NCBI GenBank assembly: GCA_039989895.1
Contig: JBDXGY010000006.1
Coordinates: 835,092 to 899,091 of the forward strand
Direction: 5' to 3'
Length of the DNA stretch: 64,000 nucleotides
Origin: Hyphomicrobiales bacterium
GTDB lineage: Bacteria; Pseudomonadota; Alphaproteobacteria; Rhizobiales; JACESI01
The stretch's first letter is position 1. Each line of letters opens with the position of its first letter. Of the stretch, positions 6,081 through 63,851 are shown piece by piece. The notes under the pieces are model-generated. The model was not told where the DNA came from and did not search any database. It saw only the letters and a program-made list of their open reading frames with translations. The translations under genes and the position numbers were made by a program.

Positions 6081-6090
6081 GGGTAAAATA

Positions 6091-40336: not shown

Positions 40337-40777
40337 ATGACTGATGTTCTGATTCTTAATGGACCTAATCTCAACCTGCTTGGCACGCGGGAACCGGAGA
40401 TTTATGGGGAAACTACTTTGAGTGATGTTGAAAAACAATGTTCGCTTGAAGGAAGCCGCTTGGGTTTAAATATAACCCACAAACAGTCTAACCACGAAGG
40501 TGAACTTGTATCTACACTGCAAGACGCAGGAGCAGCAGGTACATGGGTTGTGTTTAACTCTGGCGCTTACACACACACTTCCGTCGCTCTTCATGATGCA
40601 ATTGTCGGCAGTAGCTGCAAGGTCATTGAGGTTCATATATCAAATGTCCACGCCCGCGAAACATTCAGACATCACTCATTCATATCCCCTGTTGCACAAG
40701 GCACTATTGTAGGTCTTGGCACATATGGGTATATACTCGCTCTTCAGGCTATCGCTGAACAAACGAAAGACCTATAA
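40337..40777 (+). CDS. aroQ: type II 3-dehydroquinate dehydratase
   Basis: ILNGPNLNLLGTREPEIYG N-terminus and the HISN motif. 146 aa. Confidence 0.95.
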   Translation: MTDVLILNGPNLNLLGTREPEIYGETTLSDVEKQCSLEGSRLGLNITHKQSNHEGELVSTLQDAGAAGTWVVFNSGAYTHTSVALHDAIVGSSCKVIEVHISNVHARETFRHHSFISPVAQGTIVGLGTYGYILALQAIAEQTKDL

Positions 40778-40839: not shown

Positions 40840-41310
40840 ATGTCATCATCTGATCCAATTGACCACGATCTCATCCGCAAACTTGCTCAACTACTGTCTG
40901 ATACGGACTTAAATGAAATCGAGATAGAGCACGAAACATTGCGCTTGCGCCTATCCCGTAATCCGGCGCCTGTACAAACTGTGGTACAAGCAGCACCCCC
41001 TGTAGCAGCGCCTCAAGCAGTCGCCACAAGCGCCCCAGCAGAGATTGCAGCGCCTACACCTACAGCAGGATCAATGGAAGGTGCCCTCAGCTCGCCAATG
41101 GTTGGCACAGCTTATTTGTCAGCAGAACCTGGAAACCCGCCCTTTGTAAAAGTAGGCGATAGCGTAAAAGCAGGCCAAACGGTTCTCATTATTGAAGCCA
41201 TGAAGACGATGAATCAGATACCAGCCCAAAAAGACGGCAAAGTTACAGCTATCCTCATTGATGATGCCCAGCCAGTCGAATTCGGCGAACCACTCATCGT
41301 GATCGAATAA
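40840..41310 (+). CDS. accB: acetyl-CoA carboxylase biotin carboxyl carrier protein
   Basis: Ala/Pro linker and the biotinylation motif IEAMKTMN. Lies directly upstream of accC. Confidence 0.93.
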   Translation: MSSSDPIDHDLIRKLAQLLSDTDLNEIEIEHETLRLRLSRNPAPVQTVVQAAPPVAAPQAVATSAPAEIAAPTPTAGSMEGALSSPMVGTAYLSAEPGNPPFVKVGDSVKAGQTVLIIEAMKTMNQIPAQKDGKVTAILIDDAQPVEFGEPLIVIE

Positions 41311-41320
41311 GGAAAGCGGC

Positions 41321-42676
41321 GTGTTTAACAAGCTTCTGATTGCCAATCGCGGCGAAATCGCCCTTAGAGTCCTGCGTGCCTGTAAAGAACTTGGCATTAA
41401 AACCGTTGCCGCTCATTCCGCAGCTGATGCAAACGCAATGCATGTACGCCTTGCCGATGAGAGCGTGTGTATTGGTCCGCCTGCGGCCCGTGATTCTTAT
41501 TTGAAAATTCCGGAAATTCTGGCAGCCTGTGAAATCACTGGCGCCGATGCCGTACACCCTGGTTATGGCTTTTTATCAGAAAACGCCCGTTTTTCTGAAA
41601 TTTTAGCAGCTCACAACATCACCTTCGTTGGTCCCTCAGCAGAACACATCTCCATTATGGGAGATAAAATAACCGCGAAACAAACAGCCCAGCGATTAGG
41701 TATTCCGGTTGTTCCTGGCTCAGACGGTGCCATTAAAGATATTAAGACGGCTAAAAAAGTTGCCGCACAGATCGGTTATCCCGTTATTGTAAAGGCAGCA
41801 TCTGGTGGTGGCGGTCGCGGCATGAAAGTGGCAATGACCGAGGCTGATTTACCCGAAGCAGTCTCAACTGCAAAAACTGAATCAAAAGCAGCATTCGGTG
41901 ATGATGCCCTTTATCTCGAAAAATACCTCATTACCCCACGCCATATTGAAATTCAGGTATTTGGTGACGGCAAAGGCAATGCGATCCATTTAGGAGAACG
42001 CGATTGCTCCTTGCAAAGACGTCATCAAAAAGTATGGGAAGAAGCGTTATCCCCGACATTGAATGAAAATGAACGAGCAAAAATAGGTGATATTTGCGCT
42101 AAAGCCGTTGCTGAAATTGGTTATTCAGGCGCAGGTACGGTTGAATTTCTCTATGAAAATGGCGAGTTTTATTTCATTGAGATGAACACGCGCCTACAAG
42201 TTGAACACCCAATCACCGAGGCGGTCACAGGCGTTGATCTCGTTCACGAACAATTACGCATCGCGTCAGGTGGCTCTTTATCTGTGAAACAGGAAGACAT
42301 CGTGTTCACCGGCCACGCAATTGAATGCCGCATTAACGCCGAACATGCTAAAACTTTCGCGCCATCACCGGGAACGATTACTCAGTATCATCCGCCGGGC
42401 GGTTTCGGTGTGCGCGTTGATTCAGGTGTCTATCAGGGATATACAATTCCTCCCTACTACGACAGTTTGATCGGCAAATTGATTGTCCATGGCCGCAATC
42501 GTACTGACTGTTTGATGCGCCTACGCCGTGCCTTAGATGAATTTATCATTGATGGTGTAGAAACAACGATCCCCCTCTTCCACAATCTTCTGGCGGAACG
42601 GGATATTCAAGACGGTAATTATGATATTCACTGGCTTGAAAATTACCTCGCGAAAGACGATGCTTCGACATCTTGA
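41321..42676 (+). CDS. accC: acetyl-CoA carboxylase biotin carboxylase subunit
   Basis: LIANRGEIA, the ATP-grasp GGGGRGM motif and EMNTRLQVEHP. GTG start, 451 aa. Confidence 0.95.
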   Translation: MFNKLLIANRGEIALRVLRACKELGIKTVAAHSAADANAMHVRLADESVCIGPPAARDSYLKIPEILAACEITGADAVHPGYGFLSENARFSEILAAHNITFVGPSAEHISIMGDKITAKQTAQRLGIPVVPGSDGAIKDIKTAKKVAAQIGYPVIVKAASGGGGRGMKVAMTEADLPEAVSTAKTESKAAFGDDALYLEKYLITPRHIEIQVFGDGKGNAIHLGERDCSLQRRHQKVWEEALSPTLNENERAKIGDICAKAVAEIGYSGAGTVEFLYENGEFYFIEMNTRLQVEHPITEAVTGVDLVHEQLRIASGGSLSVKQEDIVFTGHAIECRINAEHAKTFAPSPGTITQYHPPGGFGVRVDSGVYQGYTIPPYYDSLIGKLIVHGRNRTDCLMRLRRALDEFIIDGVETTIPLFHNLLAERDIQDGNYDIHWLENYLAKDDASTS

Positions 42677-44892: not shown

Positions 44893-45173
44893 TTGGGGGC
44901 AAATCTTATACATATTGATTACAGTGATTCTTATTAAAGAAATCACTACAAAAGACGCTCGAATTGCGTGAAGTAAAACTGAATAAGAAAATAACGACCA
45001 TTCATCACAATGGTAGGTGAAACGAATTTAAGTAAGAGCCGAAAGGCTCGATTATGGGAACAAGCAGGTAGTTTGGTGGCAAACGTTGATGAACGAATGA
45101 GTTGATCAAACGATTATTTAAACACCCGCTTTATGAACACACAAATAAGGCTGAATGGCCAGAGGGAAAAAAC

Positions 45174-48100
45174 GTGCGGATTGAAAGACATTATACTAAG
45201 AAGAGCAAGTCAGCCTACGGCAACATCGAATTTCGTGAAGCAACAAGTGAAATTAAAAATCCGGACGGAACAATTGTTTTTAAACTTGATAATATTCAAG
45301 TTCCAAGTCAATTCAGCCAAGTTGCAAGCGATATCCTTGCACAAAAATATTTCCGCAAGGCTGGCGTCCCTGCACGTTTGAAAAAGGTCGAAGAAAACGA
45401 TGTGCCCTCTTTCTTGTGGCGCTCGGTGGCCGACGAAAAAGCTTTAGAAAAACTACCAGAGGACGAGCGTTATGGCTCTGAAATAGATGCCCGCCAAGTT
45501 TTTGATCGTCTTGCTGGCACATGGACCTATTGGGGTTGGAAAGGCGGCTATTTCGATAGTGATGATGACGCGCAGGCTTTTTATGACGAGTTACGCTACA
45601 TGCTTGCAACCCAGCGCTGTGCACCAAACAGCCCGCAGTGGTTTAATACTGGGCTACATTGGGCTTATGGCATTGATGGACCGGGCCAAGGTCACCACTA
45701 TGTTGATTATAAAACCGGCAAGCTGACAAAATCTAAGTCCTCCTATGAGCACCCGCAGCCTCATGCGTGTTTCATTCAGTCTGTTGCTGATGATCTCGTC
45801 AATGAAGGCGGCATTATGGATCTTTGGGTCCGTGAAGCGCGCCTATTCAAATATGGTTCAGGCACCGGCTCAAACTTCTCGCATCTACGCGGATCAGGTG
45901 AATCACTCGCAGGCGGCGGCAAATCATCTGGCCTTATGAGCTTCCTCAAAATCGGTGACCGCGCAGCAGGCGCCATTAAATCAGGCGGCACAACACGCCG
46001 CGCCGCTAAAATGGTTGTTGTTGATATCGATCACCCAGATATCGAGGAGTACATCAACTGGAAGGTGAAAGAAGAGCAAAAAGTTGCAGCCCTTGTCACC
46101 GGCTCAAAAATCGCCTCAAAACACCTTAAAGCCATCATGAAAGCCTGTGTGAACTGTTCGGGTTCTGGCGATGATTGTTTTGATGTTTTGAAAAACCCTG
46201 TGCTGAAGCGCGAAGTTCGTGCTGCCAAGAAAGCACTCGTGCCTGAAAACTACGTGCAGCGCGTTATTCAATTTGCCAAGCAAGGCTATAAGAATATTGA
46301 ATTCCCCGTTTATGACACAGATTGGGATAGCGAAGCTTATCTGACTGTTGCAGGCCAAAACTCTAACAATTCCGTACGCGTCACTGATGACTTCCTTCGT
46401 GCCGTAGAAGAAGACAGCACATGGGACCTCACGGGCCGCATTTCTCGTCAAGTTGTGAAAACAGTTCAAGCGCGTGATCTATGGGAACAAGTTGGCCATG
46501 CCGCATGGGCATCAGCTGATCCGGGCATTCAATATCACACCACAATCAACGACTGGCACACCTGCCCTGCCGCTGGTGAAATCAGAGCCTCCAATCCTTG
46601 TTCTGAATATATGTTCTTGGATGACACGGCCTGTAACCTTGCCTCTCTCAATCTGCTTCAGTTCCGCGATAAAGACGGCACTTTTCAGGTCAATGAATTT
46701 GAGCATGGCGTGCGCCTTTGGATGATCGTTCTGGAAATTTCGGTTTTGATGGCGCAATTCCCATCAAAAGAGATTGCTCAGCTTTCTTATAAATACCGCA
46801 CAACTGGCCTTGGCTTTGCCAATATCGGCGGATTTCTTATGACGTCTGGCATTCCTTATGACAGTGACGAAGGCCGCGCGATTTGTGGTGCGATCTCAGC
46901 TATTATGACGGGTGTTTGTTATGCGACATCGGCGGAGATGGCGAAAGAACAAGGCCCCTTCCCGGGCTATAAACCAAACCGCGATGCGATGCTGCGTGTG
47001 ATGCGCAATCACCGTCGCGCTGCCTATGGCGAAAGCAGCGGCTATGAAGCATTGAGCGTTGATCCTGTGCCACTCGTGGCAAGCGACTGCCCACAAGCAA
47101 GCTTGATTGAACGAGCGAAACTGGCTTGGGATAATGCGGTTGAGCTTGGCGAAAAACACGGCTATCGCAATGCGCAAGCCACGGTGGTTGCACCAACAGG
47201 CACAATTGGCCTTGTGATGGATTGTGACACGACAGGCATTGAGCCTGATTTTGCCTTGGTCAAATTCAAGAAGCTCGCCGGCGGTGGTTATTTCAAAATC
47301 ATCAACCGTGCGGTGCCTGAGGCTCTGCGCACTCTCGGCTATAGCGAAAGCGAATTGGCAGAAATTGAAGCTTATGCCGTGGGCCATGGCTCATTAGCAC
47401 AAGCACCGGCCATCAATCACTCAACGTTGAAAACCAAAGGTTTCACCGATGAGAAAATTGCAGCCGTTGAAGCAGGCCTTGCCTCCGCCTTTGACATCAA
47501 ATTCATGTTCAACAAATGGACGCTGGGCGAAGATTTCTGCAAAGAAACATTGAACCTTAGCGATGAACAGCTAAACGACATGAACTTCGATCTTCTTTCA
47601 GCCATTGGCTTTTCGAAAGACGACATTGAAGCGGCCAACAATCACGTCTGTGGCACGATGACGCTAGAAGGCGCGCCTTTCCTCACAGAAGAGCATTATC
47701 CAGTCTTTGATTGTGCCAATCCATGTGGTCGCATCGGCAAGCGTTTCTTGTCCGTCAACAGCCATATCGACATGATGGCCGCCTCACAGCCGTTCATCTG
47801 TGGTGCAATTTCAAAAACCATCAACATGCCAAATGCGGCGACGGTTGAAGATTGTAAAGACGCCTATATGCGCTCATGGCAAAAAGCCTTGAAAGCAAAC
47901 GCGCTTTACCGTGATGGCTCCAAACTCTCACAACCTCTCAATGCCTCTCTTCTTGAAGATGAGGATATGGAGGACGATGAGACAGCAGAAGAATTGGCTG
48001 CAATGCCGCAAACAGCGCAAGTTGAAAAGGTCTCTGAGAAAATCGTTGAGCGGATCATCGAGCGCGCGGTACGCGAACGCGAAAAAATGCCAGATCGCCG

Positions 48101-48923
48101 TAAAGGCTACACTCAAAAAGCCCGTGTTGGCGGCCATAAGGTCTATGTCACCACTGGCGAATATGGTGATGGTCGTCTTGGCGAAATCTTCATCGATATG
48201 CACAAAGAAGGCGCTGCCTTCCGTGCGATGATGAATAACTTTGCGATCGCTATCTCGCTCGGTCTTCAATATGGCGTGCCACTAGAAGAATATGTCGAGG
48301 CCTTTACCTTCACCCGCTTTGAACCAGCCGGTATGGTGCAGGGTAATGAAGCGATCAAAAACGCAACATCTATCCTTGATTATATCTTCCGTGAATTGGC
48401 GGTCTCTTATCTTGGTCGTCATGATTTGGCCCATGTGGACACATCAGACTTCGGCAATACGTCGCTTGGCAAAACCCAGCCAGAAGATAATGGCGCGGGC
48501 CATGTGGTTTCACGCGGCTTAGTGCGCGGTCAAACGCTGAAGCTTCACTCAAATAACGACATAAGCAGCAGCGACAAAGGCTCCTCAGCGAGCGCTTCTG
48601 ATGGCGGATCAAATATCACCGCAATTGGTGGCGCGAGCACAAGCGGCGCCTCTGCCGGTCTTGCCACATCAGGCGCCACAGCTTTGATGCGCGAAGTGGA
48701 AGCAGAGATCGAAGTCAACTCCGGCTTCGCCTCACCGGCACAAGATGCCTATGAGGACACCGAGCCAATGCCAAAGCCGCTCGATACGGCTGAACAGCGC
48801 GCTCAAGCCCGTATGAAAGGCTATGAAGGCGAAGCCTGCTCCGAATGCGCCAACTTCACCATGGTGCGCAACGGCACCTGCCTGAAGTGCGACACCTGCG
48901 GCAACACGAGTGGGTGTAGCTAG
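45174..48923 (+). CDS. nrdJ: class II (adenosylcobalamin-dependent) ribonucleoside-diphosphate reductase
   Basis: Long alphaproteobacterial NrdJ pattern: RIERHYTK N-terminus, SNPCSEY active-site loop and a Cys-rich C-terminal tail (CSECANF...[14 protein letters not shown]). I chose the GTG at 45174, with SD AGAGGGA 6 nt upstream, over the track's TTG at 45102. Confidence 0.93.
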
Positions 48924-53578: not shown

Positions 53579-53668
53579 GGAGACGTGGCCGAGTGGCTGA
53601 AGGCGCGCCCCTGCTAAGGGCGTATACGGGAGACCGTATCGAGGGTTCGAATCCCTTCGTCTCCGCCA
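53579..53668 (+). tRNA. tRNA-Ser (anticodon GCU)
   Basis: Acceptor GGAGACG/CGUCUCC, anticodon loop CUGCUAA, long variable arm (UACGG/CCGUA stem), T-loop UUCGAAU, encoded CCA. Confidence 0.92.
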
Positions 53669-53769: not shown

Positions 53770-54684
53770 GTGAGCGTATTAGACCAAGCCATGAGAGACT
53801 GCGCGCAAGAAGGCATTGTCTTTGATCGCGCCCAGACAAATGGCATCACTATGTTTTATGCGCGCAAGGGCACAGGTTACCCGCTCGTCCTTCTCCATGG
53901 ATGGCCAGAATTCTGGATGGTCTATCGCCCCATAATCAATGCTCTGGCAGACGAATTTGATATTATTGTTCCTGATCTACGCGGATTTGGCGATACCGGA
54001 AAGGCCACATCCGGCCCTGATGATCAAGCCAATGCTGACGTGCATACTGAAGATATCAAAGGCCTCATAGACAATCTCGGCATTAAAAAATTTGGACTGG
54101 TTAGTGGTGACGTTGGAGCCAATATTGCGCAAGCTTTCGCCCGATCCTATCCAGAAAGCTTGTCAGGGCTCTTCTTCTTCTCGACACCCTACCCCGGTCT
54201 AGGAAAACGATACGCACAAGCCGACCACTTGACGGAAGTCTGGTACCAATACTTTCAGCAAATACCATTGGCTGTTGAATTGGCGGGCAGCTCAAGAGAC
54301 GCTTGCAAAATGTATATCTCACATTTTCTCAACCACTGGTCCAGCGATAATCCAGCAGTCTTTGAGCATTTGATCGAAATCTACACAGACAATTTCATGA
54401 AGAATGACAATCTTCAAGGCGGGTTTGATTGGTATTTAAGTTCTGCTAAAAACAGGCGGTTGTGGATTGAAGAGAAACTTCCCCACCCCCCCGTTATCAA
54501 TACCCCATCGCACTTTATGTGGGGCAAAAAAGACCCGCTGATCCGACCTGAGTGGAGCGATCGATTGAGCGAGTATTTTAATGATTACACCATCGAGTTT
54601 GTCGATGCTGGCCACTTTGTCCATGCCGAAATACCGGATAAGGCTGCGGCCAACATTAGAAAGTTCTTTAAAGACAAGGTATAG
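53770..54684 (+). CDS. alpha/beta-fold hydrolase, Asp-nucleophile type (epoxide hydrolase / haloacetate dehalogenase-like)
   Basis: HGWPEFW oxyanion motif and SGDVGA at the nucleophile elbow (Asp rather than Ser). GTG start with GGAGGA 7 nt upstream. Confidence 0.75.
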   Translation: MSVLDQAMRDCAQEGIVFDRAQTNGITMFYARKGTGYPLVLLHGWPEFWMVYRPIINALADEFDIIVPDLRGFGDTGKATSGPDDQANADVHTEDIKGLIDNLGIKKFGLVSGDVGANIAQAFARSYPESLSGLFFFSTPYPGLGKRYAQADHLTEVWYQYFQQIPLAVELAGSSRDACKMYISHFLNHWSSDNPAVFEHLIEIYTDNFMKNDNLQGGFDWYLSSAKNRRLWIEEKLPHPPVINTPSHFMWGKKDPLIRPEWSDRLSEYFNDYTIEFVDAGHFVHAEIPDKAAANIRKFFKDKV

Positions 54685-54723: not shown

Positions 54724-55569
54724 TTGTCTTCTTCATTGCCCCCAAATCCTTGCATTCTTTGTTGTGCTATAACGGGTGCGGTACCCACACAGAAGGATAA
54801 TCCAGCCCTCCCCGTAACAATTGCCGAACAGATAGAAAGTTCACATGAAGCTGTGGAGGCAGGTGCGTCAATATTGCATTGTCATGTACGCGATGATGAA
54901 GGCAATCCGACATCTGACCCCGAGCGTTTTGCGGCCCTCAAAGAAGGCCTTGAGAAATATGTGCCCGGAGCGATCATTCAATTTTCAACCGGTGGGCGAA
55001 ATGGTGCAGGCCATGAGCGTGGTGCTATGTTATCACTTCGCCCTGATATGGCTTCTTTAACGGTAGGCTCCAACAACTTCCCAAATCGAGTTTACGAAAA
55101 CCCTCCTAATCTGGTTGAATGGCTCTCGGCAGAAATGCGTCAATATGAGGTTATGCCAGAGATCGAGGCCTTTGACCTGTCGCATATTATCAATGCCGTC
55201 AAAATGCACGCCAATGGCGCCATTAGCGGTAAACTTTATGTACAATTTGTCATGGGAATCAAGAACGCCATGCCCGTCGACAAACATGTGTTTGATTTCT
55301 ATGTTGAGACGATGAAACGCCTCGCGCCCGATGCCCCGTGGTGCGCTGCAGGCATTGGTCCTGGACAGGTTATTGTCAATGAATGGGCAATTGCGGCTGG
55401 CGGCCACACTAGAGCCGGTCTTGAGGATAATATACGTCTCAACAAAACAACCCTCGCTCCCTCCAATGCGGCTTTAATCAAAAGAGCAGCAGAGCTATGC
55501 GACAAATACGAGCGCCCCGTCGCAACAATAAGTGAAGCACGTAATATCCTTGGGCTACGCGCTGCATGA
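54724..55569 (+). CDS. beta-keto acid cleavage enzyme family protein (BKACE/DUF849, 3-keto-5-aminohexanoate cleavage enzyme-like)
   Basis: N-terminus CAITGAVPTQKDNPALPVTIAEQIESSHEAVEAGASILHCHVRDDEG is typical of the BKACE TIM barrel. 281 aa. TTG start with GAGGA 8 nt upstream. Confidence 0.75.
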   Translation: MSSSLPPNPCILCCAITGAVPTQKDNPALPVTIAEQIESSHEAVEAGASILHCHVRDDEGNPTSDPERFAALKEGLEKYVPGAIIQFSTGGRNGAGHERGAMLSLRPDMASLTVGSNNFPNRVYENPPNLVEWLSAEMRQYEVMPEIEAFDLSHIINAVKMHANGAISGKLYVQFVMGIKNAMPVDKHVFDFYVETMKRLAPDAPWCAAGIGPGQVIVNEWAIAAGGHTRAGLEDNIRLNKTTLAPSNAALIKRAAELCDKYERPVATISEARNILGLRAA

Positions 55570-55587: not shown

Positions 55588-56916
55588 TTAAGAGGCGATC
55601 ACCTCATTCTTCTGACCAACTAAAGCATCTTCAAACCATTTGGCTACTTGCAATAGTTGTACATCTCGCCTTGGGCGAGCAGCCAATTGTATGCCATATG
55701 AAAGCCCACTCGCATTCGTGCCACAGGGCACTGTGATACTCGGCAAGCCCAACAAGGTCCACGCTCTGCTCATCACAGGATCGCCCGTGCCTGCTTGCGA
55801 CAATGGCGCCACATCTGGAGCACTTGGCAAAACAAGCACATCCGCATCACCAAAAATCTGTTCAAGATTATGCAGGCAGTAATCGCGCAGCTGATAAGCA
55901 TCATCATAATCACTGCTTACGGTTCCATCGGCCAATGCAAACAATTCATGGAGTGACATGCTTAGTTTGTCATAGGCCGTATAGCGTTCATGTGAAAGTT
56001 CACGCGCAGCCTCGACAGCCATGATAATCGTTTGCGCTTCACACAGCTGAGTGAAAGGATCAGGCACAGTGTCTCGCCCAACATGCGCGCCTTTTTCGAC
56101 AATCAATTGAAGTGTTTTTTCAATTGCAAGATTGGCGCCTTTTGAGGCCTTATCCCATTCTGGACCCATCCATAATCTGACATTGGGTTCTTCTTTGATT
56201 GGTGCGATACAAGCAAGGTCAGGACGATTTGCCATAACACTGGCGATTAAAGCTATATCCGATACGCATCGACCAAACATACCAACAGTATCCAATCCAT
56301 TCGCCAGCGCTTTAACACCCGCCAGACTGATCATACCACGGGTTGGTTTGTAACCGACAATACCGCAATAAGCGGCAGGACGAATGGTGGAAGCCGCTGT
56401 CTGCGACCCAATGGCAAGTGGCACCATATAATCACTAACGGCTGCGGCGGAGCCGCTGGACGAGCCTCCGGGCGAACGCGCTGCATCATTTGGGTGCTTC
56501 GTTTTACCCGCTTGCCAATAAGCAAATTCGGTCGAAACCGATTTACCCATTATAATCGCCCCTGCTGCACGAAGACGACTAACGCAGGCTGCATCAGCTA
56601 CTGGTCGGAATCCAGCATAGATTTTGGAGCCATAACTTGTTGGCATATCAAATGTATCAAAAATATCTTTGATAGAAACGGGCAAGCCCCAAAGCAATCC
56701 CCTCTTCTCAATTGGCTGTTGCGAGAGAGTTGATAGCTGGCGCTCAACATTAAGCCAATCAAGGTGCTGCCATGCTTCAACATCGTCTTCTCTATTCTCA
56801 ATGCGTTCACGACAAGAAGACACGAGTACGTCAGGCGTCAATTCGCCAGAAATCAGCAAACTTCGTGCGTGTGTTGCTGTTAATTCATTAAAAGTATTAT
56901 AGACTGAACCAAACAA
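55588..56916 (-). CDS. amidase-signature (AS) family amidase
   Basis: GGSSSGSAAAV signature with the upstream catalytic Lys context (PVSIKDIF). 442 aa. Confidence 0.85.
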   Translation of the reverse strand: MFGSVYNTFNELTATHARSLLISGELTPDVLVSSCRERIENREDDVEAWQHLDWLNVERQLSTLSQQPIEKRGLLWGLPVSIKDIFDTFDMPTSYGSKIYAGFRPVADAACVSRLRAAGAIIMGKSVSTEFAYWQAGKTKHPNDAARSPGGSSSGSAAAVSDYMVPLAIGSQTAASTIRPAAYCGIVGYKPTRGMISLAGVKALANGLDTVGMFGRCVSDIALIASVMANRPDLACIAPIKEEPNVRLWMGPEWDKASKGANLAIEKTLQLIVEKGAHVGRDTVPDPFTQLCEAQTIIMAVEAARELSHERYTAYDKLSMSLHELFALADGTVSSDYDDAYQLRDYCLHNLEQIFGDADVLVLPSAPDVAPLSQAGTGDPVMSRAWTLLGLPSITVPCGTNASGLSYGIQLAARPRRDVQLLQVAKWFEDALVGQKNEVIAS

Positions 56917-57008: not shown

Positions 57009-57319
57009 TATTACATTGCAAGCAAATGAGCCCATTTCAAATAAGTAAGCTTTCATTTGACGATGTCACTGTCAACATGCTCTTATATAAAAAACCACAC
57101 CGTACTCCCATTTAAGTAAGCGCTTAATTACGGTTTTAAAAAACAAAAGAAATTTAAAAAATTTAAGCTTGTTACAAAAGGAAATTAAAAATTTAGGGCT
57201 TGTAAATTGGATTTAAAAACAATGGTATGTCCTAATAGTATGGAGGCATGATTTAGCGATACATTTTGAATGTTGTTGAATTAGCTTCTTCACAAAAAAA
57301 AGCGCAGGGAGTACACAGA

Positions 57320-58408
57320 ATGAAACTATTAAGAAAATACAAGAAAACAGCGACGTTAGCTGTTGCAGCCGTTGCTTTAGCCGCAGCCGGAGCAGGCAGC
57401 GTTCAATATTCAAAGGCGGCTGACGCTATCGCCGTTCTTCTATGTCCATTTGGCTGTGGTCCAATTGCTGGTGACACCATCTTAATGAACCAGATGATCA
57501 AAGAAGGTTCAGATGTGTTGCTGCTTCCGCAGGAAACACCAGGTTACATGTACAACATCAGAGAGATGGGCCGTGAAGAGCGCAAATGGAAAACATCCGT
57601 TTTTGCCACTGAAGACACTCTCATCCAAATCGCCTATTCAGGTGGTTCTGACGAAGTTAAAGAATTTCTCCCTGAGCCAGTACAGGTCCCGTGGAAGCTT
57701 CTTTATGGTGAAGCATGGTGGGGCCAAGGCAAATTCCTTGTGACCTTCGATTGTAACTTGAAGTCAATGGCTGATTTGAAAGGCAAGCGTATCTCGCTCG
57801 GTCTGCGCGGTCAGTCTGATTGGGGCGTATTCTCACGCTTGTTCTTAGAGCATGCATTTGGTGTAACACCAGATAATGCAGATATTCGCCACATGACTCC
57901 AGGGCAGCTAACACAGCAGCTCATTGATGGTGCAACTGATGCAGCTGTCACACCAATCGGTGCGGAGCCAAGTCTTGAAACATTCATCATACCTGGTCCT
58001 GTTCGTCAGCTTGAAGCAACCGGTAATAAGATGTGTTACCTCGGCGTGACGGAAGAAGACGTAGCAAAGGTGAATGAAAAATTCGGCACAAGTTGGTTCC
58101 ATGTGAATCTACCAGCTGGAACACTTCCTCACCAAGATGAGCCTCTTGGTATTGGATTTAACCGCGCCTTTAAGGCCGCTCATGAAAGTTTCGATGAAGA
58201 GCGCGCTTACAACTTTGTAAAATCGGTCGGTAAAATTGGGCCTAAAATGAAAGAACTTCATGCCCTATGGAAAATCTGGTCACCAGAACTGATGACATGT
58301 GGTTTGTCAGAAGAGAACACGCATGCTGGTGCAATCAGAGCCTACAAAGAGCTGGGTTGGTGGGACAAACGCAAAGAGTGCGAACCAATGACTTACCCTA
58401 AGAGCTAA
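57320..58408 (+). CDS. TAXI-family TRAP transporter solute-binding protein
   Basis: Signal peptide MKLLRKYKKTATLAVAAVALAAAGAG and an NMT1/TAXI-like periplasmic fold pattern. It lies directly upstream of a fused TRAP permease. ATG at 57320 with AGGGAG 8 nt upstream. Confidence 0.7.
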   Translation: MKLLRKYKKTATLAVAAVALAAAGAGSVQYSKAADAIAVLLCPFGCGPIAGDTILMNQMIKEGSDVLLLPQETPGYMYNIREMGREERKWKTSVFATEDTLIQIAYSGGSDEVKEFLPEPVQVPWKLLYGEAWWGQGKFLVTFDCNLKSMADLKGKRISLGLRGQSDWGVFSRLFLEHAFGVTPDNADIRHMTPGQLTQQLIDGATDAAVTPIGAEPSLETFIIPGPVRQLEATGNKMCYLGVTEEDVAKVNEKFGTSWFHVNLPAGTLPHQDEPLGIGFNRAFKAAHESFDEERAYNFVKSVGKIGPKMKELHALWKIWSPELMTCGLSEENTHAGAIRAYKELGWWDKRKECEPMTYPKS

Positions 58409-58537: not shown

Positions 58538-60493
58538 ATGACTGGCTGGAAAACCCTCAGGCAACTGGTTGATATACCATTCATATTAGTTGGCCTTGTG
58601 CTCACCGTATACATTGGGTTTTCAGCTTTTGGATATGTAAAAAACTCATCAGAACATTATTCAAATTTCATCCTTGGCACGTGCCTGATGACCGGTTTTC
58701 TCGCCCTTCGCAATTTGTGCGACGAAAAACTGGGCATGAAAGACATTATGAGCGATACGGGCGACACTATGCGCGTGCGCCCTTTCTTTTGGCCACGGTT
58801 TAGCCTGGCGGTTTTCGCGCTCATAATAAGTGCCATTGCGATGGGATACATTCGCTATCACGCCGTCTACCTTGAAAAAGCCCAACCCTATTTTGCTGAT
58901 ATAGATATTGTTGTCGGCTGGATGATGACCGTGTCAATTCTAGCGCTGTGCTACATCCACTGGGGTTTACTCCTGACATCTGTGATCGCAGTCGCGATCA
59001 GCTATTTCTTCTTCGGTTATCTGATTGAAAATCCGCTTTTCGTAACCCCAAAATATGACACCGGATTCATCATGAATTACATTGGTCTTGGGACCAACCA
59101 AGGCTTTTACTATCTCGCTCAAGTTGCAGCAGATTCGATCTATTTCTTGATCATTTATGCCGCCATTCTTTTAGGCGTTGGCATGCTTGATATGATCCTT
59201 GAAGTCGGCAAAGTAACAGGACGCCGCATGGCTGGTGGTGCTGCTGGACCAGCACTCATTGGCTCAGGCATTGTATCTTCAATTATGGGGCAAGCTGTCT
59301 CAAACGTTGTGCTGACAGGTCGATTGACCATCCCGATGATGAAACGTTATGGCTATTCAAACTCTATGGCAGGTGCGATTGAAGCAACAGCTTCTACTGC
59401 AGGACAGATCATGCCCCCAATCATGGGTTTGGCTGCATTCATTATCGCCTCATTCTTGAACCGCCCCTACATCGACGTTGCACTTTCTGCCATGGTGCCG
59501 GGCCTTTTATATTTAGTGGGTTGCGGCATCGCGATCTATATCTATGCAAAACGTCACAAACTACCAAAGCTGACGGAAAAAGCCGATATGCAAATGATCT
59601 TGCGTCTTTTGCCGACATTCATTATTTCCTTCGGTATTGTTCTGTGGCTTTTGCTTGGCTATCGCTCACCGGCAATTGCAGGAATGTGGGGTATTATCCT
59701 TGCTCTCGCCTTGTCATTTTTTCAAGGAAAATGGCAACCCAAATTGTCAACGCTCTATGCGGCTCTTCAAGAAGGCTTCTACCTTGTGGCGGTGCTCTCA
59801 CTGCTATTGATTGCCATTGGCCCGCTCGGTCAGGTAATGTTGACGACTAACCTCTCCGGACGGTTAGGTGCAGCGCTGATCCAATATTTGCCAGATAGCC
59901 AACTACTCTTGTTGATTGGTGCCATGTGCGTATCGCTGGTTCTGGGTATGGGACTACCAACACCGGTGGCCTATATCATTGTAGCGCTTGCTCTCGTACC
60001 CTTCATGCAACAGATCGGCGTTCCGCCGCTACAAGCCCATTTCTTCGTCTTCTATTTTGCCGTATTCTCAACATTGACGCCTCCTGTGGCCGTCAGCGTG
60101 TTGGCGGCGGCCAAACTCGCGGACGCCTCATTCCTGAGAACTGCTGCGGATTCATTGAAAATCGCCTCAACAACTTTCATCATTCCATTTGCATTTGTTT
60201 TTTCACCTGAACTGATGACATTTCCGAATATGACAACAGCGATCATCCCTCCTTTGCTGGAAGTTCTCGGAATCCAGATCACAATGTCGATTGCATCTTA
60301 TGGGTACTTTTTCAGGGCTTTGAGCGGATGGGAACGTATTGTATTCTTAGCCACAGCTGTCTTCGGATTTTTGTATATGACCTTGGCATATGATTTTTAC
60401 CTCTACGCCTCGCTCTCATTATTTGGTGCGATGACTCTATGGGTATTAAAGAGTTACTTGTCTGAAAAATTCATGGGAAACACGCCTCAATAA
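58538..60493 (+). CDS. TRAP transporter fused 4TM/12TM permease (TAXI-type)
   Basis: 651 aa, highly hydrophobic with many predicted transmembrane helices. The size and position match the fused permease of TAXI-TRAP systems. Confidence 0.8.
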   Translation: MTGWKTLRQLVDIPFILVGLVLTVYIGFSAFGYVKNSSEHYSNFILGTCLMTGFLALRNLCDEKLGMKDIMSDTGDTMRVRPFFWPRFSLAVFALIISAIAMGYIRYHAVYLEKAQPYFADIDIVVGWMMTVSILALCYIHWGLLLTSVIAVAISYFFFGYLIENPLFVTPKYDTGFIMNYIGLGTNQGFYYLAQVAADSIYFLIIYAAILLGVGMLDMILEVGKVTGRRMAGGAAGPALIGSGIVSSIMGQAVSNVVLTGRLTIPMMKRYGYSNSMAGAIEATASTAGQIMPPIMGLAAFIIASFLNRPYIDVALSAMVPGLLYLVGCGIAIYIYAKRHKLPKLTEKADMQMILRLLPTFIISFGIVLWLLLGYRSPAIAGMWGIILALALSFFQGKWQPKLSTLYAALQEGFYLVAVLSLLLIAIGPLGQVMLTTNLSGRLGAALIQYLPDSQLLLLIGAMCVSLVLGMGLPTPVAYIIVALALVPFMQQIGVPPLQAHFFVFYFAVFSTLTPPVAVSVLAAAKLADASFLRTAADSLKIASTTFIIPFAFVFSPELMTFPNMTTAIIPPLLEVLGIQITMSIASYGYFFRALSGWERIVFLATAVFGFLYMTLAYDFYLYASLSLFGAMTLWVLKSYLSEKFMGNTPQ

Positions 60494-60520: not shown

Positions 60521-60997
60521 ATATCGTTATCGTTTAAGGAAGTTGCCGAAATACTCAAGATTATTGACGCATCAAACTGCGATGAAGTCGTTCTTGAACT
60601 GGAAGGCATAAAACTGGCTGTGCGTCGCGATACGTCTCATAGCCAAGGGGAATCGCGCAGCCTAGAAACGCCAGTGACTGAGCTAACGCAGACTGCCGCA
60701 CCCTCAGCACCTCAAACTGGCAAGAAAGCACCCACGGCTGAAGCAAGCACAGCTTCGGGGGTTCCCGTGCGCTCGCCTATGGTTGGATCCTTTTATCGTC
60801 GCCCTGCCCCAGACAAGCCTCCCTTCGTTGAAATCGGCTCAAAAGTAAAACAAGGTGATACGCTGTGTTTGATTGACGTTATGAAACTTTATACGACAAT
60901 CACAGCGACACACGCTGGTACTATCAATGAGATAGCCGCTGATGATGGCGATCTCGTCGAATTTGACCAACTGTTATTTGTCATATCTGCGGATTAG
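60521..60997 (+). CDS. biotin carboxyl carrier protein (second, accessory copy); start codon unresolved
   Basis: Biotinyl-lysine motif (LIDVMKLY). The in-frame region upstream of the track's GTG (60620) encodes a typical BCCP N-terminus (SFKEVAEILKIIDASNCDEVVLELEGIKLAV). No ATG, GTG or TTG occurs between the in-frame stop at 60503 and 60620. Confidence 0.8.
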   Translation: MSLSFKEVAEILKIIDASNCDEVVLELEGIKLAVRRDTSHSQGESRSLETPVTELTQTAAPSAPQTGKKAPTAEASTASGVPVRSPMVGSFYRRPAPDKPPFVEIGSKVKQGDTLCLIDVMKLYTTITATHAGTINEIAADDGDLVEFDQLLFVISAD

Positions 60998-61000
60998 ACG

Positions 61001-62374
61001 ATGAACCAATCGCATCGCGTTTTGATTGCAAACAGAGGAGAAATCGCGGTTCGCGCTGCGAAAGCTTGTCGTGCAATTGGATTGGAGAGCGTTGCAGTAT
61101 ACTCCACTGCTGATCGTTCTTCACCTCATGTGTGGCTTGCTGATAAAGCTGTTTGTATTGGCCCGCCTGCGAGCACTAAGAGCTATCTCAATGTGGATGC
61201 CTTGCTCCATGTGGCCAAGCAAACGGGATGTACGATGCTCTATCCCGGTTATGGATTTCTTGCTGAAAACGCGGCCTTTGCCGAACAGTGCGCCGAAGAA
61301 GAGTTGGTCTTCATCGGGCCGTCACCAGAAACAATCACAACTATGGGCGATAAAGCGCGCGCGAGAGACATGGCAAAGAAATTTAACGTGCCGATCGTAC
61401 CTGGATCAAAAGGCGCTTTTACCGATAGCAAAATAGCATTGAAAGAGGCAAAAAAAATCGGCTTTCCCTTGTTGTTGAAAGCAAGTTCAGGTGGCGGCGG
61501 TCGCGGGATGCGGGTCGCAGAAGACTTGACAACATTCAAAACAAAATTCGATGAAGCCTCACAAGAAGCACGCGAAGCTTTTGGTGACCCTTCAGTCTAC
61601 CTTGAACGGTATTTCTCCGCTGTGCGCCATCTTGAGGTACAGATATTCGGTGACAACCATGGATTAGTGCGCCATTTAGGCGAACGGGATTGCACGACAC
61701 AAAGACGCCACCAGAAACTGGTTGAAGAAAGCCCTTCTCCTGTTCTAACCGACAAGGAGCGAAACAGCCTGTTAGACGCTGCTGTACGTTTAGCAAAAGG
61801 CGTTGGCTATCTTGGCGCAGGCACCGTGGAATTTATATTCGATGAAGTATCACGTGAATTCTATTTCATAGAGATGAATACCCGCATTCAGGTCGAACAT
61901 CCGGTGACAGAAATGCGCATCGGCCACGACTTGATTGAAGAACAACTCCGTGTGGCACTCGGTGGGCCTCTTTCTATACCTGAAGAGAAAGACTGGTCCA
62001 GCAATCATGTGATGGAGTTTCGTATCAATGCGGAGAACCCTGATCAAGGCTTTGTCCCTTCCCCCGGTCGCATCACACGGCTACGGTTTCCAACAACGCC
62101 AGATGTGCGTTGCGATAGTTTCATCTATGAAGGCGCCACCATCCAGCCGTTTTACGATTCGATGATCGCAAAGTTAATTGTTACAGGAACTGACAGACAG
62201 GACGCTTTGAAAAATACGCGCAGAGCACTCGATGAACTTATCATTGACGGTATCCACACAACACGAAGTTTTCATCGCAATTTGCTTGATGATCCAGATT
62301 TTATTGGAGCGAAAATCCATACCCGCTGGGTAGAAAATACTTTCATTGATCGCTTAGATGCGCAGAGGATTTGA
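61001..62374 (+). CDS. biotin carboxylase subunit (second, accessory copy)
   Basis: LIANRGEIA, GGGGRGM and EMNTRIQVEHP motifs. 457 aa, starting 3 nt after the BCCP stop. Confidence 0.92.
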   Translation: MNQSHRVLIANRGEIAVRAAKACRAIGLESVAVYSTADRSSPHVWLADKAVCIGPPASTKSYLNVDALLHVAKQTGCTMLYPGYGFLAENAAFAEQCAEEELVFIGPSPETITTMGDKARARDMAKKFNVPIVPGSKGAFTDSKIALKEAKKIGFPLLLKASSGGGGRGMRVAEDLTTFKTKFDEASQEAREAFGDPSVYLERYFSAVRHLEVQIFGDNHGLVRHLGERDCTTQRRHQKLVEESPSPVLTDKERNSLLDAAVRLAKGVGYLGAGTVEFIFDEVSREFYFIEMNTRIQVEHPVTEMRIGHDLIEEQLRVALGGPLSIPEEKDWSSNHVMEFRINAENPDQGFVPSPGRITRLRFPTTPDVRCDSFIYEGATIQPFYDSMIAKLIVTGTDRQDALKNTRRALDELIIDGIHTTRSFHRNLLDDPDFIGAKIHTRWVENTFIDRLDAQRI

Positions 62375-62375
62375 C

Positions 62376-63851
62376 ATGCCAAAAAACAGCACCTCAAGCA
62401 CCATCGAAAAAAGAAAAGTCCGGCTCATTGATGTAACCCTGCGCGATGCTCATCAATGCTTGTGGGCAACCCGCATGACAACCGCGATGATGAAAGATAT
62501 TGCCCCTCGTCTAGACAATGCCGGTTTTGAGGCCATTGATCTTGTAGGTGGTGCCGTCTTTGATGTCATGGTGCGCTACCTGCGCGAAGACCCGTGGGAG
62601 CGGATGCGCATCTTAAATAAATGGATCACAAAAACGCCTTTGATTATTCATACGCGCGGGCAGAGTTTGTTTACCTTCGAATTTTTTGCTGACGACGTAG
62701 TTGAGCTCGCTGCCGAACGTTTTGCCGCAAACGGTATGACATACCACACCCCCTATGACGCCTTAAACGACATACGCAATCTGGGAATTCCGATCAAGGT
62801 TGCAAAGAAACATGGTCTTTATGTTGTGGGAGGGCTTGCCTATACCTATAGCCCTGTTCACACCGACGAATATTACGTTCGCAAGGCCAAAGAGCTTGTT
62901 GCCCATGGTGTTGATGCTGTGTTTGTGAAGGACGCAAGTGGACTTTTGCGACCTGAGCGCGTTGCAACGCTTTTTCCTGCGCTCAAAAAAGCAATCAAAA
63001 ACTTGCCGCTTCAAATCCACACCCACTGCAATTCTGGCCTTGCTCCTTATGTCACCTTACAAGCTGTGGAACATGGTGCCGAAGTAGTCCACACTGCCAC
63101 ATCAACACTCGCAAATGGTGTTTCTCATACGCCTACGGGACTTTTCACCAAGAACTGCCGCCGTCGAGGGTATGACGTTGATATTGATCTGGCTCCCATT
63201 GATGAGGTTGCGGAACGATTGGCTTATATTGCTGAGATGGAAGACAAGCCGGTGGGTACACCAAATCAATATGACGAATTCCATTTCCACCATCAATGCG
63301 CTGGCGGTATGGTGTCAAATCTTCAGTATCAACTGGAGACTATCGGTATTGAAGACAGACTAGAAGAAATTTTGGAAGAAGCAGGTCGGGTGCGCATGGA
63401 TTTAGGCTATCCAATCGTGATCAGCCCCTTCGCGCAATATATAATCACCATGGCAATCCTCAATGTTATGGGCAAGGATCAAGGCAAACCGCGTTACGAA
63501 ACTGTCCCTGATGAAGTACGACGCTATGTGCTTGGTGGATATGGCGAGATCGCAGGAAAAATTGACGGGACGCTCTACGACAAAATCACACGTGGAGCAC
63601 AACCCATCACACAGCGCCCCGGTGAACTTGTCCCACCAGCCTTGAAGCGTCTTCGTAAGGAGCGCGGCCCCTTCGCAAGCGACGACGATCTATTGCTCGC
63701 CGCATTTTATGATGACACTCAATACCAAGCCTTAAAAGCAGCCGGCCCCATTGAGACTGAATATCCCATCATGACGACACCGCTTTTGACGCTCATTAAA
63801 GAACTCAGCAATAGATCTCACATCAAGAGTTTTCATTTTTCAAAAAACTGA
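62376..63851 (+). CDS. pyruvate-carboxylase/oxaloacetate-decarboxylase-type carboxyltransferase subunit lacking a biotinyl domain
   Basis: HMGL-like TIM-barrel motifs: LIDVTLRDAHQ, the carbamyl-Lys context VKDASGLL and the metal ligands HTHCNSG. It ends without an xMKM biotinyl domain. ATG at 62376 with GAGGA 6 nt upstream. Confidence 0.85.
   Translation: MPKNSTSSTIEKRKVRLIDVTLRDAHQCLWATRMTTAMMKDIAPRLDNAGFEAIDLVGGAVFDVMVRYLREDPWERMRILNKWITKTPLIIHTRGQSLFTFEFFADDVVELAAERFAANGMTYHTPYDALNDIRNLGIPIKVAKKHGLYVVGGLAYTYSPVHTDEYYVRKAKELVAHGVDAVFVKDASGLLRPERVATLFPALKKAIKNLPLQIHTHCNSGLAPYVTLQAVEHGAEVVHTATSTLANGVSHTPTGLFTKNCRRRGYDVDIDLAPIDEVAERLAYIAEMEDKPVGTPNQYDEFHFHHQCAGGMVSNLQYQLETIGIEDRLEEILEEAGRVRMDLGYPIVISPFAQYIITMAILNVMGKDQGKPRYETVPDEVRRYVLGGYGEIAGKIDGTLYDKITRGAQPITQRPGELVPPALKRLRKERGPFASDDDLLLAAFYDDTQYQALKAAGPIETEYPIMTTPLLTLIKELSNRSHIKSFHFSKN

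Follow-up and report, generated by a model that had tools for sequence, protein, structure and literature searches.

Which compound is carboxylated by the biotin-dependent enzyme encoded at positions 60,521 to 63,851 of a 64,000-nucleotide stretch of DNA from a Hyphomicrobiales bacterium (assembly GCA_039989895.1, contig JBDXGY010000006.1, positions 835,092 to 899,091; hereafter the window), and what is its product used for? Three adjacent genes encode a free biotin carboxyl carrier protein (BCCP), a biotin carboxylase (BC) and a carboxyltransferase (CT) of the pyruvate carboxylase (PC) type, the latter belonging to a distinct, highly conserved and experimentally uncharacterised clade. Judging from its relatives and from the neighbouring genes, the job of this CT is probably not anaplerotic pyruvate carboxylation. 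We propose, tentatively and with a rough probability of 0.4, that the enzyme adds a carboxyl group to an anionic ketone, giving a beta-keto acid, which is split with acetyl-CoA by an enzyme for the cleavage of beta-keto acids (BKACE). The split architecture is common; what makes the system interesting is its conserved coupling to BKACE, joined in several lineages by SauS and Xsc.

An earlier note, made from the sequence alone, had described a split carboxylase, dependent on biotin and with a CT of the PC type, as a second system besides a housekeeping accB-accC pair, and the Pfam domains bear this out. The open reading frame (ORF) listing and the sequence confirm three closely packed genes on the + strand in the order BCCP-BC-CT, with gaps of 3 nt (BCCP stop codon ending at 60997, BC ATG at 61001) and 1 nt (BC stop codon ending at 62374, CT ATG at 62376). 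The CT contains only the HMGL-like and PYC_OADA domains and lacks the C-terminal biotinyl domain, and a biotinyl-domain hidden Markov model built in this analysis had no match in the clade of the window CT. The motifs quoted in the note are present: RDAHQ (residues 23-27, counted from the ATG at 62376), IIHTRGQSLFTFEFF (90-104), KDASGLL (185-191) and HTHCNSG (214-220). The housekeeping pair is real as well (aroQ, accB and accC all score above NCBIfam equivalog cut-offs). No canonical pyc gene is present within the 64-kb window; a 1163-aa ORF tried as a candidate was rejected, being identified as Mfd.

Homologues of the window CT number in thousands. The best 120 are 78-91% identical to it, measure 481-498 aa with the exception of one of 458 aa, and belong to Alpha- and Gammaproteobacteria of marine and soil origin; they bear the database names 'pyruvate carboxylase subunit B' and, from JGI, 'oxaloacetate decarboxylase alpha subunit'. 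A genome scan found CTs 71-91% identical to that of the window in Anderseniella, Hyphomicrobiaceae, Methyloligellaceae, Roseovarius, Afifella, Hyphomicrobium, Acidocella and Arenicellales, and all homologues found in a plasmid collection were at 44% identity or less. The window CT scores above the generic domain model NF006761 only (426 vs 402), and falls below the equivalogs of OadA (TIGR01108, 386 vs 756), PycB (NF010644, 366 vs 734; NF010645, 297 vs 1182) and the transcarboxylase 5S subunit (NF008984, 308 vs 827). Relatives were sampled by an exhaustive search of 50%-identity representatives, and the nearest 150 were analysed. In a neighbour-joining tree the window CT family forms a tight clade, whose sister groups are other CTs of about 490 aa without a biotinyl domain, well apart from the biotinyl-domain-bearing PycB/OadA clade. 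The clade of the window CT is large and very conserved, with identities of 72-91% across Alpha- and Gammaproteobacteria. Tight clustering with bona fide PycB proteins, which would have told against the earlier note, is thus not seen. A Methyloligellaceae chromosome (OZ245780.1) carries two distant CT copies, 79% and 78% identical to that of the window (L018 and L019). A 540-kb contig labelled Leptospira interrogans (L038, JBNOAI010000002.1) carries a cluster with a 77%-identical CT; with 59% GC in the fetched stretch, this contig misfits L. interrogans and is suggestive of contamination or of a wrong label on the assembly.

Two expectations of the earlier note did not hold. A free BCCP beside a CT without a biotinyl domain is not unusual: a biotinyl domain was found in 33 of the nearest 150 representatives, approximately 70 of the approximately 107 full-length ones among them lack it, other CT clades without this domain likewise pair with free accB-like and accC-like genes, and the 5S/1.3S pair of transcarboxylase is a characterised precedent for such a CT with a free carrier. 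Neither is a BCCP encoded first in the operon a feature of the clade, as most relatives have the BCCP on the opposite strand with an IclR-type regulator, or after the CT. Other clades of this kind (loci L082 8001-13409, L084 519-9485 and L088 8992-19428) have PycB-like CTs in different, apparently uncharacterised split-carboxylase clusters: one contains two tandem CT paralogues, BC, BCCP and an NDP-forming acyl-CoA synthetase; another AcnX, DUF35/thiolase and an acyl-CoA synthetase; and the third, on a Burkholderia plasmid, actP, carbonic anhydrase and bioAFDB.

The partner proteins bear on how the enzyme is assembled. In bacterial PycA (about 471 aa) the C-terminus is an Ala-rich helix forming the core of a BT-like domain; bacterial PycB (600-620 aa) possesses the BT-like sheet and an HGE motif and has a BCCP at its C-terminus (PMC5059739). 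The two-subunit PC of Methylobacillus flagellatus (PDB 5ks8) shares with the window system the catalytic residues, a BC that is a separate polypeptide and the CT fold (TM 0.72, 36% identity). Unlike it, the window CT (491 aa) has no fused BCCP, BT-like sheet or HGE motif, belongs to another clade, fails the equivalogs and has changed residues at conserved positions; its alignment to 5ks8_C ends at residue 449, before the BT-like region, and its tail is unrelated, residues 430-486 being strongly conserved within its own family. The window BC terminates 11 residues past WVEN, as AccC does, without the Ala-rich C-terminal helix of PycA; it is above the subfamily model NF006367 (618.8 vs 597) and below the accC equivalog TIGR00514 (595 vs 626.5). 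As the hallmarks of PycA and PycB are absent, the holoenzyme must be organised differently, most simply like acetyl-CoA carboxylase (ACC), with a BCCP that would shuttle between BC and CT. The product of the three genes is a heteromeric biotin-dependent carboxylase, probably with an assembly like that of bacterial ACC. Identity to the housekeeping proteins is 50% for the second BC (to AccC) and 30% for the second BCCP (to AccB); read from 60521, the BCCP is a two-domain protein of the AccB type that keeps the AccB N-terminal domain, covers TIGR00531 and carries the MK(M/L) motif (VMKL). The assembly logic is probably the same as in heteromeric ACC, although ACC has the crotonase-fold AccA/AccD where the window has a PC-type DRE-TIM barrel.

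Other biotin enzymes resemble the system only in part. The Propionibacterium transcarboxylase (5S + 1.3S; PDB 1rqb) also combines a PC-type CT of about 500 aa lacking a biotinyl domain (32% identity, TM 0.71) with a free biotin carrier. Transcarboxylase, however, works without a BC and needs a 12S CT of the crotonase fold, whereas the window has a BC, its carrier is a two-domain AccB-type protein and its CT is far below the 5S equivalog; no 12S-like or crotonase-fold CT gene was found in the two Pfam-annotated neighbourhoods of close relatives (L081 and L085). OadA, the alpha subunit of the Na+ pump oxaloacetate decarboxylase (V. cholerae; PDB 2nx9), has CT fold and motifs in common with the window protein (34% identity). 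Oxaloacetate decarboxylase requires the membrane subunits OadB and OadG and uses no ATP-dependent BC, whereas here a BC is adjacent, the TIGR01108 score is about half of that required and no OAD_beta (OadB-type) gene lies in the two annotated neighbourhoods. An oxaloacetate decarboxylase or transcarboxylase function was rejected on account of the BC and of the lack of partner subunits in these two neighbourhoods. The 2-oxoglutarate carboxylase of the Hydrogenobacter type, compared by architecture, differs in having the BCCP fused to the CT subunit, whereas that of the window is free.

The active site of the CT combines an intact catalytic apparatus with clade-specific changes. The AlphaFold2 model is moderate (pLDDT 67) and was used for fold and strand positions only; Foldseek matched this pLDDT 67 model to 5ks8, 2nx9 and 1rqb with TM values of 0.69-0.72, the nearest solved structure being 5ks8_C (M. 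flagellatus PycB, E=8e-85; aligned structurally, the two are 36% identical). The protein belongs to the PC/OadA/5S group of the DRE-TIM metallolyases, with the TIM barrel, PYC_OADA, the metal ligands and the catalytic residues R23, D24, H26, Q27, R94, K185, H214, H216 and S314. R23, D24, Q27, R94, K185, H214 and H216 are invariant in the family and S314 is at least 90% conserved; S314 aligns with a Ser of M. flagellatus PycB (GGMISNL), at a position that the catalytic Thr occupies in other PCs. About 14 conserved positions (W57V, M91I, L92H, G100T, Y101F, Y104F, F112A, F124H, R125T, F127Y, A188S, D239H, T350S and S353A) carry residues that are the same in all of 119 family members and unlike those of the biotinyl-domain clade, whose consensus there is 70-93%. 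In the model H92, H124, T125 and H239 lie inside predicted strands of the barrel and S188 just after one; in TIM barrels the C-terminal ends of the strands form the active-site face. The net effect is a gain of His, Thr and Ser and the loss of one Arg, one Asp and two Tyr hydroxyls, which fits a larger or differently charged acceptor without naming which. The altered acceptor specificity that the earlier note had read from the substrate loop is therefore plausible, because the loop differences are invariant in the clade and are joined by changes at positions conserved in the biotinyl-domain clade.

The genes around the CT were analysed in 80 related loci, in which ORFs were called and clustered and the clusters annotated; the shares given here are of features within 7 kb of the CT in the 52 fully flanked loci. 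BCCP was found in 88% of them and BC in 79% (an undercount caused by the clustering thresholds), followed by BKACE in 75% (39/52), mostly directly downstream of the CT. A short-chain dehydrogenase/reductase (SDR) is present in 67%, IclR in 54%, a TRAP permease in 50%, a TAXI solute-binding protein in 48% and a TauE-family permease in 31%; less frequent are a glutathione S-transferase (GST, 23%), an ABC ATPase (21%), an amidase (15%), LarA (15%) and SauS (13%). The usual layout places the SDR gene(s), BCCP and IclR on one strand and BC-CT-BKACE on the other, so that the BCCP-first order is peculiar to the lineage of the window. The window and a 97%-identical sister contig have abhydrolase-BKACE, the amidase (minus strand) and TAXI-TRAP-BCCP-BC-CT, where the cluster ends. 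Three other CT clades without a biotinyl domain have free accB-like and accC-like genes with different partners and no BKACE; the link to BKACE is therefore specific to the clade of the window CT.

Several genes recur in part of the loci. Homologues of the alpha/beta-hydrolase (45-49% identity) occur in seven related loci, as an accessory to a minority of the clusters, and the amidase, a recurrent accessory gene, in 13, being 49-54% identical to that of the window in nine. A 3-hydroxybutyrate-dehydrogenase-like SDR with its substrate-binding residues kept is present in about nine loci, compatible with acetoacetate as a pathway metabolite, and BioY in two, which also fits a carboxylase acting ahead of BKACE. 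ComC-like Ldh_2 dehydrogenase and LarA homologues occur in some loci, and the Acidocella clusters adjoin phosphoenolpyruvate carboxylase. Matches in the PDB to the TAXI protein and to the common SDR were too distant or generic to name a ligand. A second, unassigned BKACE type (about 304 aa) forms a TAXI-TRAP-BKACE2-SDR operon with the common SDR in L045, L053, L024, L049 and L054; it adjoins the BC-CT-BKACE operon in the Roseovarius and gammaproteobacterial loci and suggests either two steps of beta-keto acid cleavage or two routes of entry. In the Arenicellales (L061-L076) the cluster is enlarged by LarA/LarB/LarC/LarE, the nickel-pincer hydroxyacid racemase system, together with GST, a family III CoA-transferase, a carnitine-dehydrogenase-like 3HCDH, an NDP-forming acyl-CoA synthetase and an enoyl-CoA hydratase.

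BKACE converts a beta-keto acid and acetyl-CoA to an acyl-CoA and acetoacetate (PMC11961710). Carboxylation next to a carbonyl yields a beta-keto acid, which is the substrate class of BKACE, and a carboxylase acting before BKACE is therefore the simplest scheme. In this scheme the BC would carboxylate the biotin of the free two-domain BCCP with ATP and bicarbonate, and the BCCP would deliver the carboxyl group to the separate PC-type CT. The acceptor would be a small anionic oxo compound, imported by the adjacent TAXI-TRAP transporter and in most relatives made from the matching alcohol by the SDR. Its carboxylation at the carbon beside the carbonyl would give the beta-keto acid, which BKACE and acetyl-CoA would cleave to an acyl-CoA and acetoacetate. 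The known BKACE pathways (Kce in lysine fermentation; dehydrocarnitine cleavage) use the same family (PF05853) and the same reaction, but there the beta-keto acid is made from a beta-hydroxy acid by a dehydrogenase; a biotin carboxylase supplying the beta-keto acid to BKACE is unreported in the literature searched. Ketones are also activated by carboxylation in acetone carboxylase and in the 2-ketopropyl-CoM carboxylase of Xanthobacter, which do not use biotin. The functional analogy lies in the proposed logic, in which SDR(s) would oxidise a secondary alcohol, the methyl ketone would be carboxylated to a beta-keto acid and acetoacetate would enter central metabolism; nevertheless these enzymes are unrelated in sequence, and their product is not known to be cleaved by a BKACE.

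The acyl-CoA formed may be suggested by the neighbours of the clade in some lineages. A CoA-acylating aldehyde dehydrogenase found in 10 related loci is SauS according to its NCBIfam equivalog (704-782 vs cut-off 600), and Xsc is present in two (990 vs cut-off 676). SauS lies within the carboxylase operon in five loci, in the order BC-CT-BKACE-SauS in L045, L046 and L053, BC-CT-SauS-Xsc in L029, and directly after the CT in L077; there is no sulfoacetate-CoA ligase within 10 kb in any of these five. The BKACE reaction is consequently the sole obvious source of sulfoacetyl-CoA there, and the acyl-CoA in the lineages with SauS/Xsc is most likely sulfoacetyl-CoA. Its formation by BKACE would imply 3-oxo-4-sulfobutanoate as BKACE substrate and sulfoacetone (2-oxopropane-1-sulfonate), or a close analogue, as substrate of the carboxylase. 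Sulfoacetol derived from 2,3-dihydroxypropane-1-sulfonate or cysteinolate is conceivable as an alternative, with less tidy BKACE chemistry, and 3-sulfopyruvate was rejected as substrate in combination with BKACE, as it would yield oxalyl-CoA and not sulfoacetyl-CoA. The clade might represent a hitherto overlooked ketone carboxylase that depends on biotin and uses sulfoacetone, or a C3 sulfonate ketone related to it, and, with BKACE, SauS and Xsc, a new aerobic route by which C3 organosulfonates would be converted to sulfoacetyl-CoA, to sulfoacetaldehyde (by SauS) and to acetyl phosphate and sulfite (by Xsc), possibly widespread in marine Alpha- and Gammaproteobacteria; we regard this more specific proposal as doubtful.

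A set of 80 metagenomic SauS loci (L089-L168) gives the wider context of this enzyme. About half of them have SauS with a ligase, approximately 39 of the SauCD type and 12 of the SauT type, and the remaining contigs are mostly short; an ADP-forming ligase appears to be the commoner partner of SauS. The approximately 39 SauCD genes are succinyl-CoA-synthetase-like and located after sauS, and Xsc is present in 17-19 of the 80 loci, several of them with TctA/TctC or TauE transporters. SauS was rejected as a general marker of the carboxylase system, which is present in just three of these loci.

A number of observations speak against the coupling of the carboxylase to BKACE or against a sulfonate as its substrate. 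The window cluster itself lacks SDR, IclR, SauS, Xsc and TauE, its BKACE lies 5 kb upstream and shares only about 50% identity with the BKACEs found next to the CT in most relatives, and Roseovarius indicus carries a 75%-identical BKACE unaccompanied by a carboxylase. The BKACE annotation is of the 3-oxoadipate type and would suit levulinate; the conservation of R94 (equivalent to RePC R621) and of the metal ligands is compatible with pyruvate or another 2-oxo acid; and the window BCCP has no canonical start codon at its conserved Met. The carboxylase was present in only 3 of the 80 metagenomic SauS loci, and a SauCD-like ligase exists in Acidocella and in L022/L023, so that the adjacency of SauS may there reflect two clusters side by side. 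TauE and the NitT/TauT-type ABC systems are broad families, the literature search returned no paper on such a carboxylase-BKACE system, and we know of no natural source of sulfoacetone.

The same carboxylation and BKACE cleavage could act on a carboxylated ketone instead of a sulfonate. From levulinate, 3-oxoadipate would be formed, followed by succinyl-CoA and acetoacetate; from acetoacetate, 3-oxoglutarate would be formed, followed by malonyl-CoA and acetoacetate. The window BKACE (462) and a CT-adjacent BKACE (459) both exceed the cut-off of 350 of the equivalog NF053568, named '3-oxoadipate:acetyl-CoA acetyltransferase'; known TAXI transporters carry carboxylates, and the 3-hydroxybutyrate-dehydrogenase-like SDR and the lack of any sulfonate-specific gene in the window cluster point the same way. 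We nonetheless consider this variant unlikely, as it leaves SauS, or SauS and Xsc, in the ligase-free operons of five loci unexplained, and the literature search found no paper tying levulinate to a biotin enzyme. If acetoacetate were the substrate, the same compound would be formed again and the pathway would do no more than an acetyl-CoA carboxylase, by a detour; acetoacetate carboxylation as a catabolic route was rejected for this reason.

An ordinary PC in three subunits, supplying oxaloacetate for anaplerosis beside unrelated BKACE and TRAP genes, seems distinctly unlikely. The conservation of every catalytic residue of a PC-type CT, the fold shared with PC, OadA and 5S and the PGAP-style naming through the domain model NF006761 would agree with it. 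Against it stand the separate clade, scores far under every PycB equivalog cut-off, the approximately 14 invariant substitutions at positions conserved in the pyruvate and oxaloacetate enzymes, and the tight conserved linkage to BKACE, SDR, IclR and a transporter. Two CT copies in one Methyloligellaceae genome would be unusual for an anaplerotic enzyme, and the Acidocella clusters have phosphoenolpyruvate carboxylase beside them.

The carboxylation of another 2-oxo acid (2-oxoglutarate, 2-oxobutyrate or 3-sulfopyruvate), whose product would enter, for example, reductive or biosynthetic metabolism with no part for BKACE, is in our opinion quite improbable. RDAHQ, R94, the position of the carbamylated Lys and HxH, which bind 2-oxo acids in PC, are kept, and the ComC-like Ldh_2 dehydrogenase and LarA homologues of some loci are 2-hydroxy acid enzymes; yet this leaves the 75% linkage to BKACE unexplained, cleavage by BKACE would yield oxalyl-CoA, which misfits both SauS and the BKACE subtype, and the characterised 2-oxoglutarate carboxylase has its BCCP fused to the CT subunit.

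The state of the genes in this genome was assessed from the BCCP start and from the substitutions relative to the sister contig, which had been reached through BKACE homology, a search for exact copies of the window CT having found no contig. The uncertainty of 125-158 aa that the earlier note gave for the BCCP is real, with 125 aa from the sole canonical start (GTG 60620) and 158 aa from the start aligned with the orthologues. Sixty orthologues start with MSLSFKEVAEI, aligning exactly with an in-frame ATA at 60521; the codon at this conserved Met is ATA in the window, ATT in two sister contigs from metagenome-assembled genomes and ATG in L001, and the sister contigs carry a TTG three codons later, where the window has none. 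ATT is a known rare start codon. The 158-aa form scores 124.9 on TIGR00531 (cut-off 115.2; profile positions 2-155), whereas the 125-aa form scores 104, below the cut-off, and does not cover the whole AccB profile. A Shine-Dalgarno-like GGAGAGG lies just 5' of the ATA, and past the start codon the 33-codon extension of the window has four differences from the sister contigs, of which three are synonymous. On the basis of the orthologue alignment, the full AccB profile, GGAGAGG and the mostly synonymous changes, we conclude that the gene probably starts at about 60521 on a non-canonical codon.

The pN/pS values were computed gene by gene against the sister contig (97% identical at the nucleotide level), and were 0.02 for CT, 0.04 for BKACE and for the amidase, 0.05 for TRAP and 0.12-0.20 for TAXI, BC, BCCP and the hydrolase (BC and BCCP 0.13-0.17; hydrolase 0.20); with values of 0.02-0.20, all eight cluster genes are under purifying selection. 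Decay of the system in this genome, for which the lost BCCP ATG with no canonical start close by and the missing SDR, IclR and CT-adjacent BKACE could be quoted (the sister cluster, L085, also stops directly after the CT without SDR or IclR), is very improbable in view of the eight intact genes with these pN/pS values, the synonymous changes of the extension, GGAGAGG and the ATT of the sister contigs. The identities to L001 are 91% for CT, 63% for BCCP, 57% for BC and 52% for BKACE; by these values and by pN/pS the CT is unusually constrained, its evolution being much slower than that of its partners.

Biotin-dependent carboxylases have a short, well-studied list of substrate classes, to which a widespread, conserved clade with a new acceptor would add one. 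The coupling to BKACE, if true, would be a new way of activating ketones without a CoA ligase or an oxygenase. A sulfonate substrate, if true, would fill a gap in marine sulfur and carbon cycling, with C3 sulfonates converging on SauS and Xsc, and would mean that thousands of genes are mis-annotated as 'pyruvate carboxylase subunit B', 'oxaloacetate decarboxylase alpha' or 'acetyl-CoA carboxylase'. The proposal is directly testable, since carriers are available in culture (Roseovarius sp. 217, R. lutimaris, R. nitratireducens, R. halotolerans, Afifella sp. and Hyphomicrobium sp. CS1BSMeth3).

The coordinates of the cluster and of the housekeeping set are collected in Table 1. The start of the TAXI protein is uncertain, its counterpart on the sister contig being called at 362 aa.

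Table 1 Features of the split carboxylase cluster and of the housekeeping biotin genes in the window.
Feature	Position	Strand	Evidence and remarks
alpha/beta-hydrolase	53770..54684	+	Pfam Abhydrolase_1 E=1e-24
BKACE	54724..55569	+	Pfam BKACE (PF05853) E=8e-90; NCBIfam NF053568 462 vs cut-off 350
amidase-signature amidase	55588..56916	-	Pfam Amidase E=1.5e-70
TAXI-family TRAP solute-binding protein	57266..58408	+	Pfam NMT1_3; TIGR02122 TRAP_TAXI 77.5 vs cut-off 84 (below)
TRAP fused permease (DctQ-DctM type)	58538..60493	+	TIGR02123 TRAP_fused 350 vs cut-off 321
free AccB-type BCCP	60521..60997	+	Pfam Biotin_lipoyl; 158 aa if from ATA 60521; biotinyl lysine in VMKL
biotin carboxylase subunit, 457 aa	61001..62374	+	Pfam Biotin_carb_N, CPSase_L_D2, Biotin_carb_C
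carboxyltransferase (PC/OadA/5S, DRE-TIM) without biotinyl domain, 491 aa	62376..63851	+	Pfam HMGL-like, PYC_OADA
aroQ (housekeeping set)	40337-40777		passes NCBIfam equivalog cut-off
accB (housekeeping set)	40840-41310		TIGR00531 139.9 vs cut-off 115.2
accC (housekeeping set)	41321-42676		TIGR00514 703.5 vs cut-off 626.5

Scans for promoters and terminators in the window gave a signal no better than chance, and its GC composition gave no island signal. A tRNA-Ser (GCT) gene lies at 53579-53668; the synteny with the 97%-identical sister contig begins at 53655, within the 3' end of this tRNA, and left of the breakpoint the sister contig (L085 1-1975) has a phage-type integrase instead, so that this border of the cluster looks like an integration hotspot. 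Ordinary housekeeping genes elsewhere in the window include an NAD-linked formate-dehydrogenase-like pair (4383-8892; Nuo51/2Fe-2S-type and molybdopterin subunits) and a class II (B12-dependent) ribonucleotide reductase of 1273 aa with a TSCPD domain (45102-48923).

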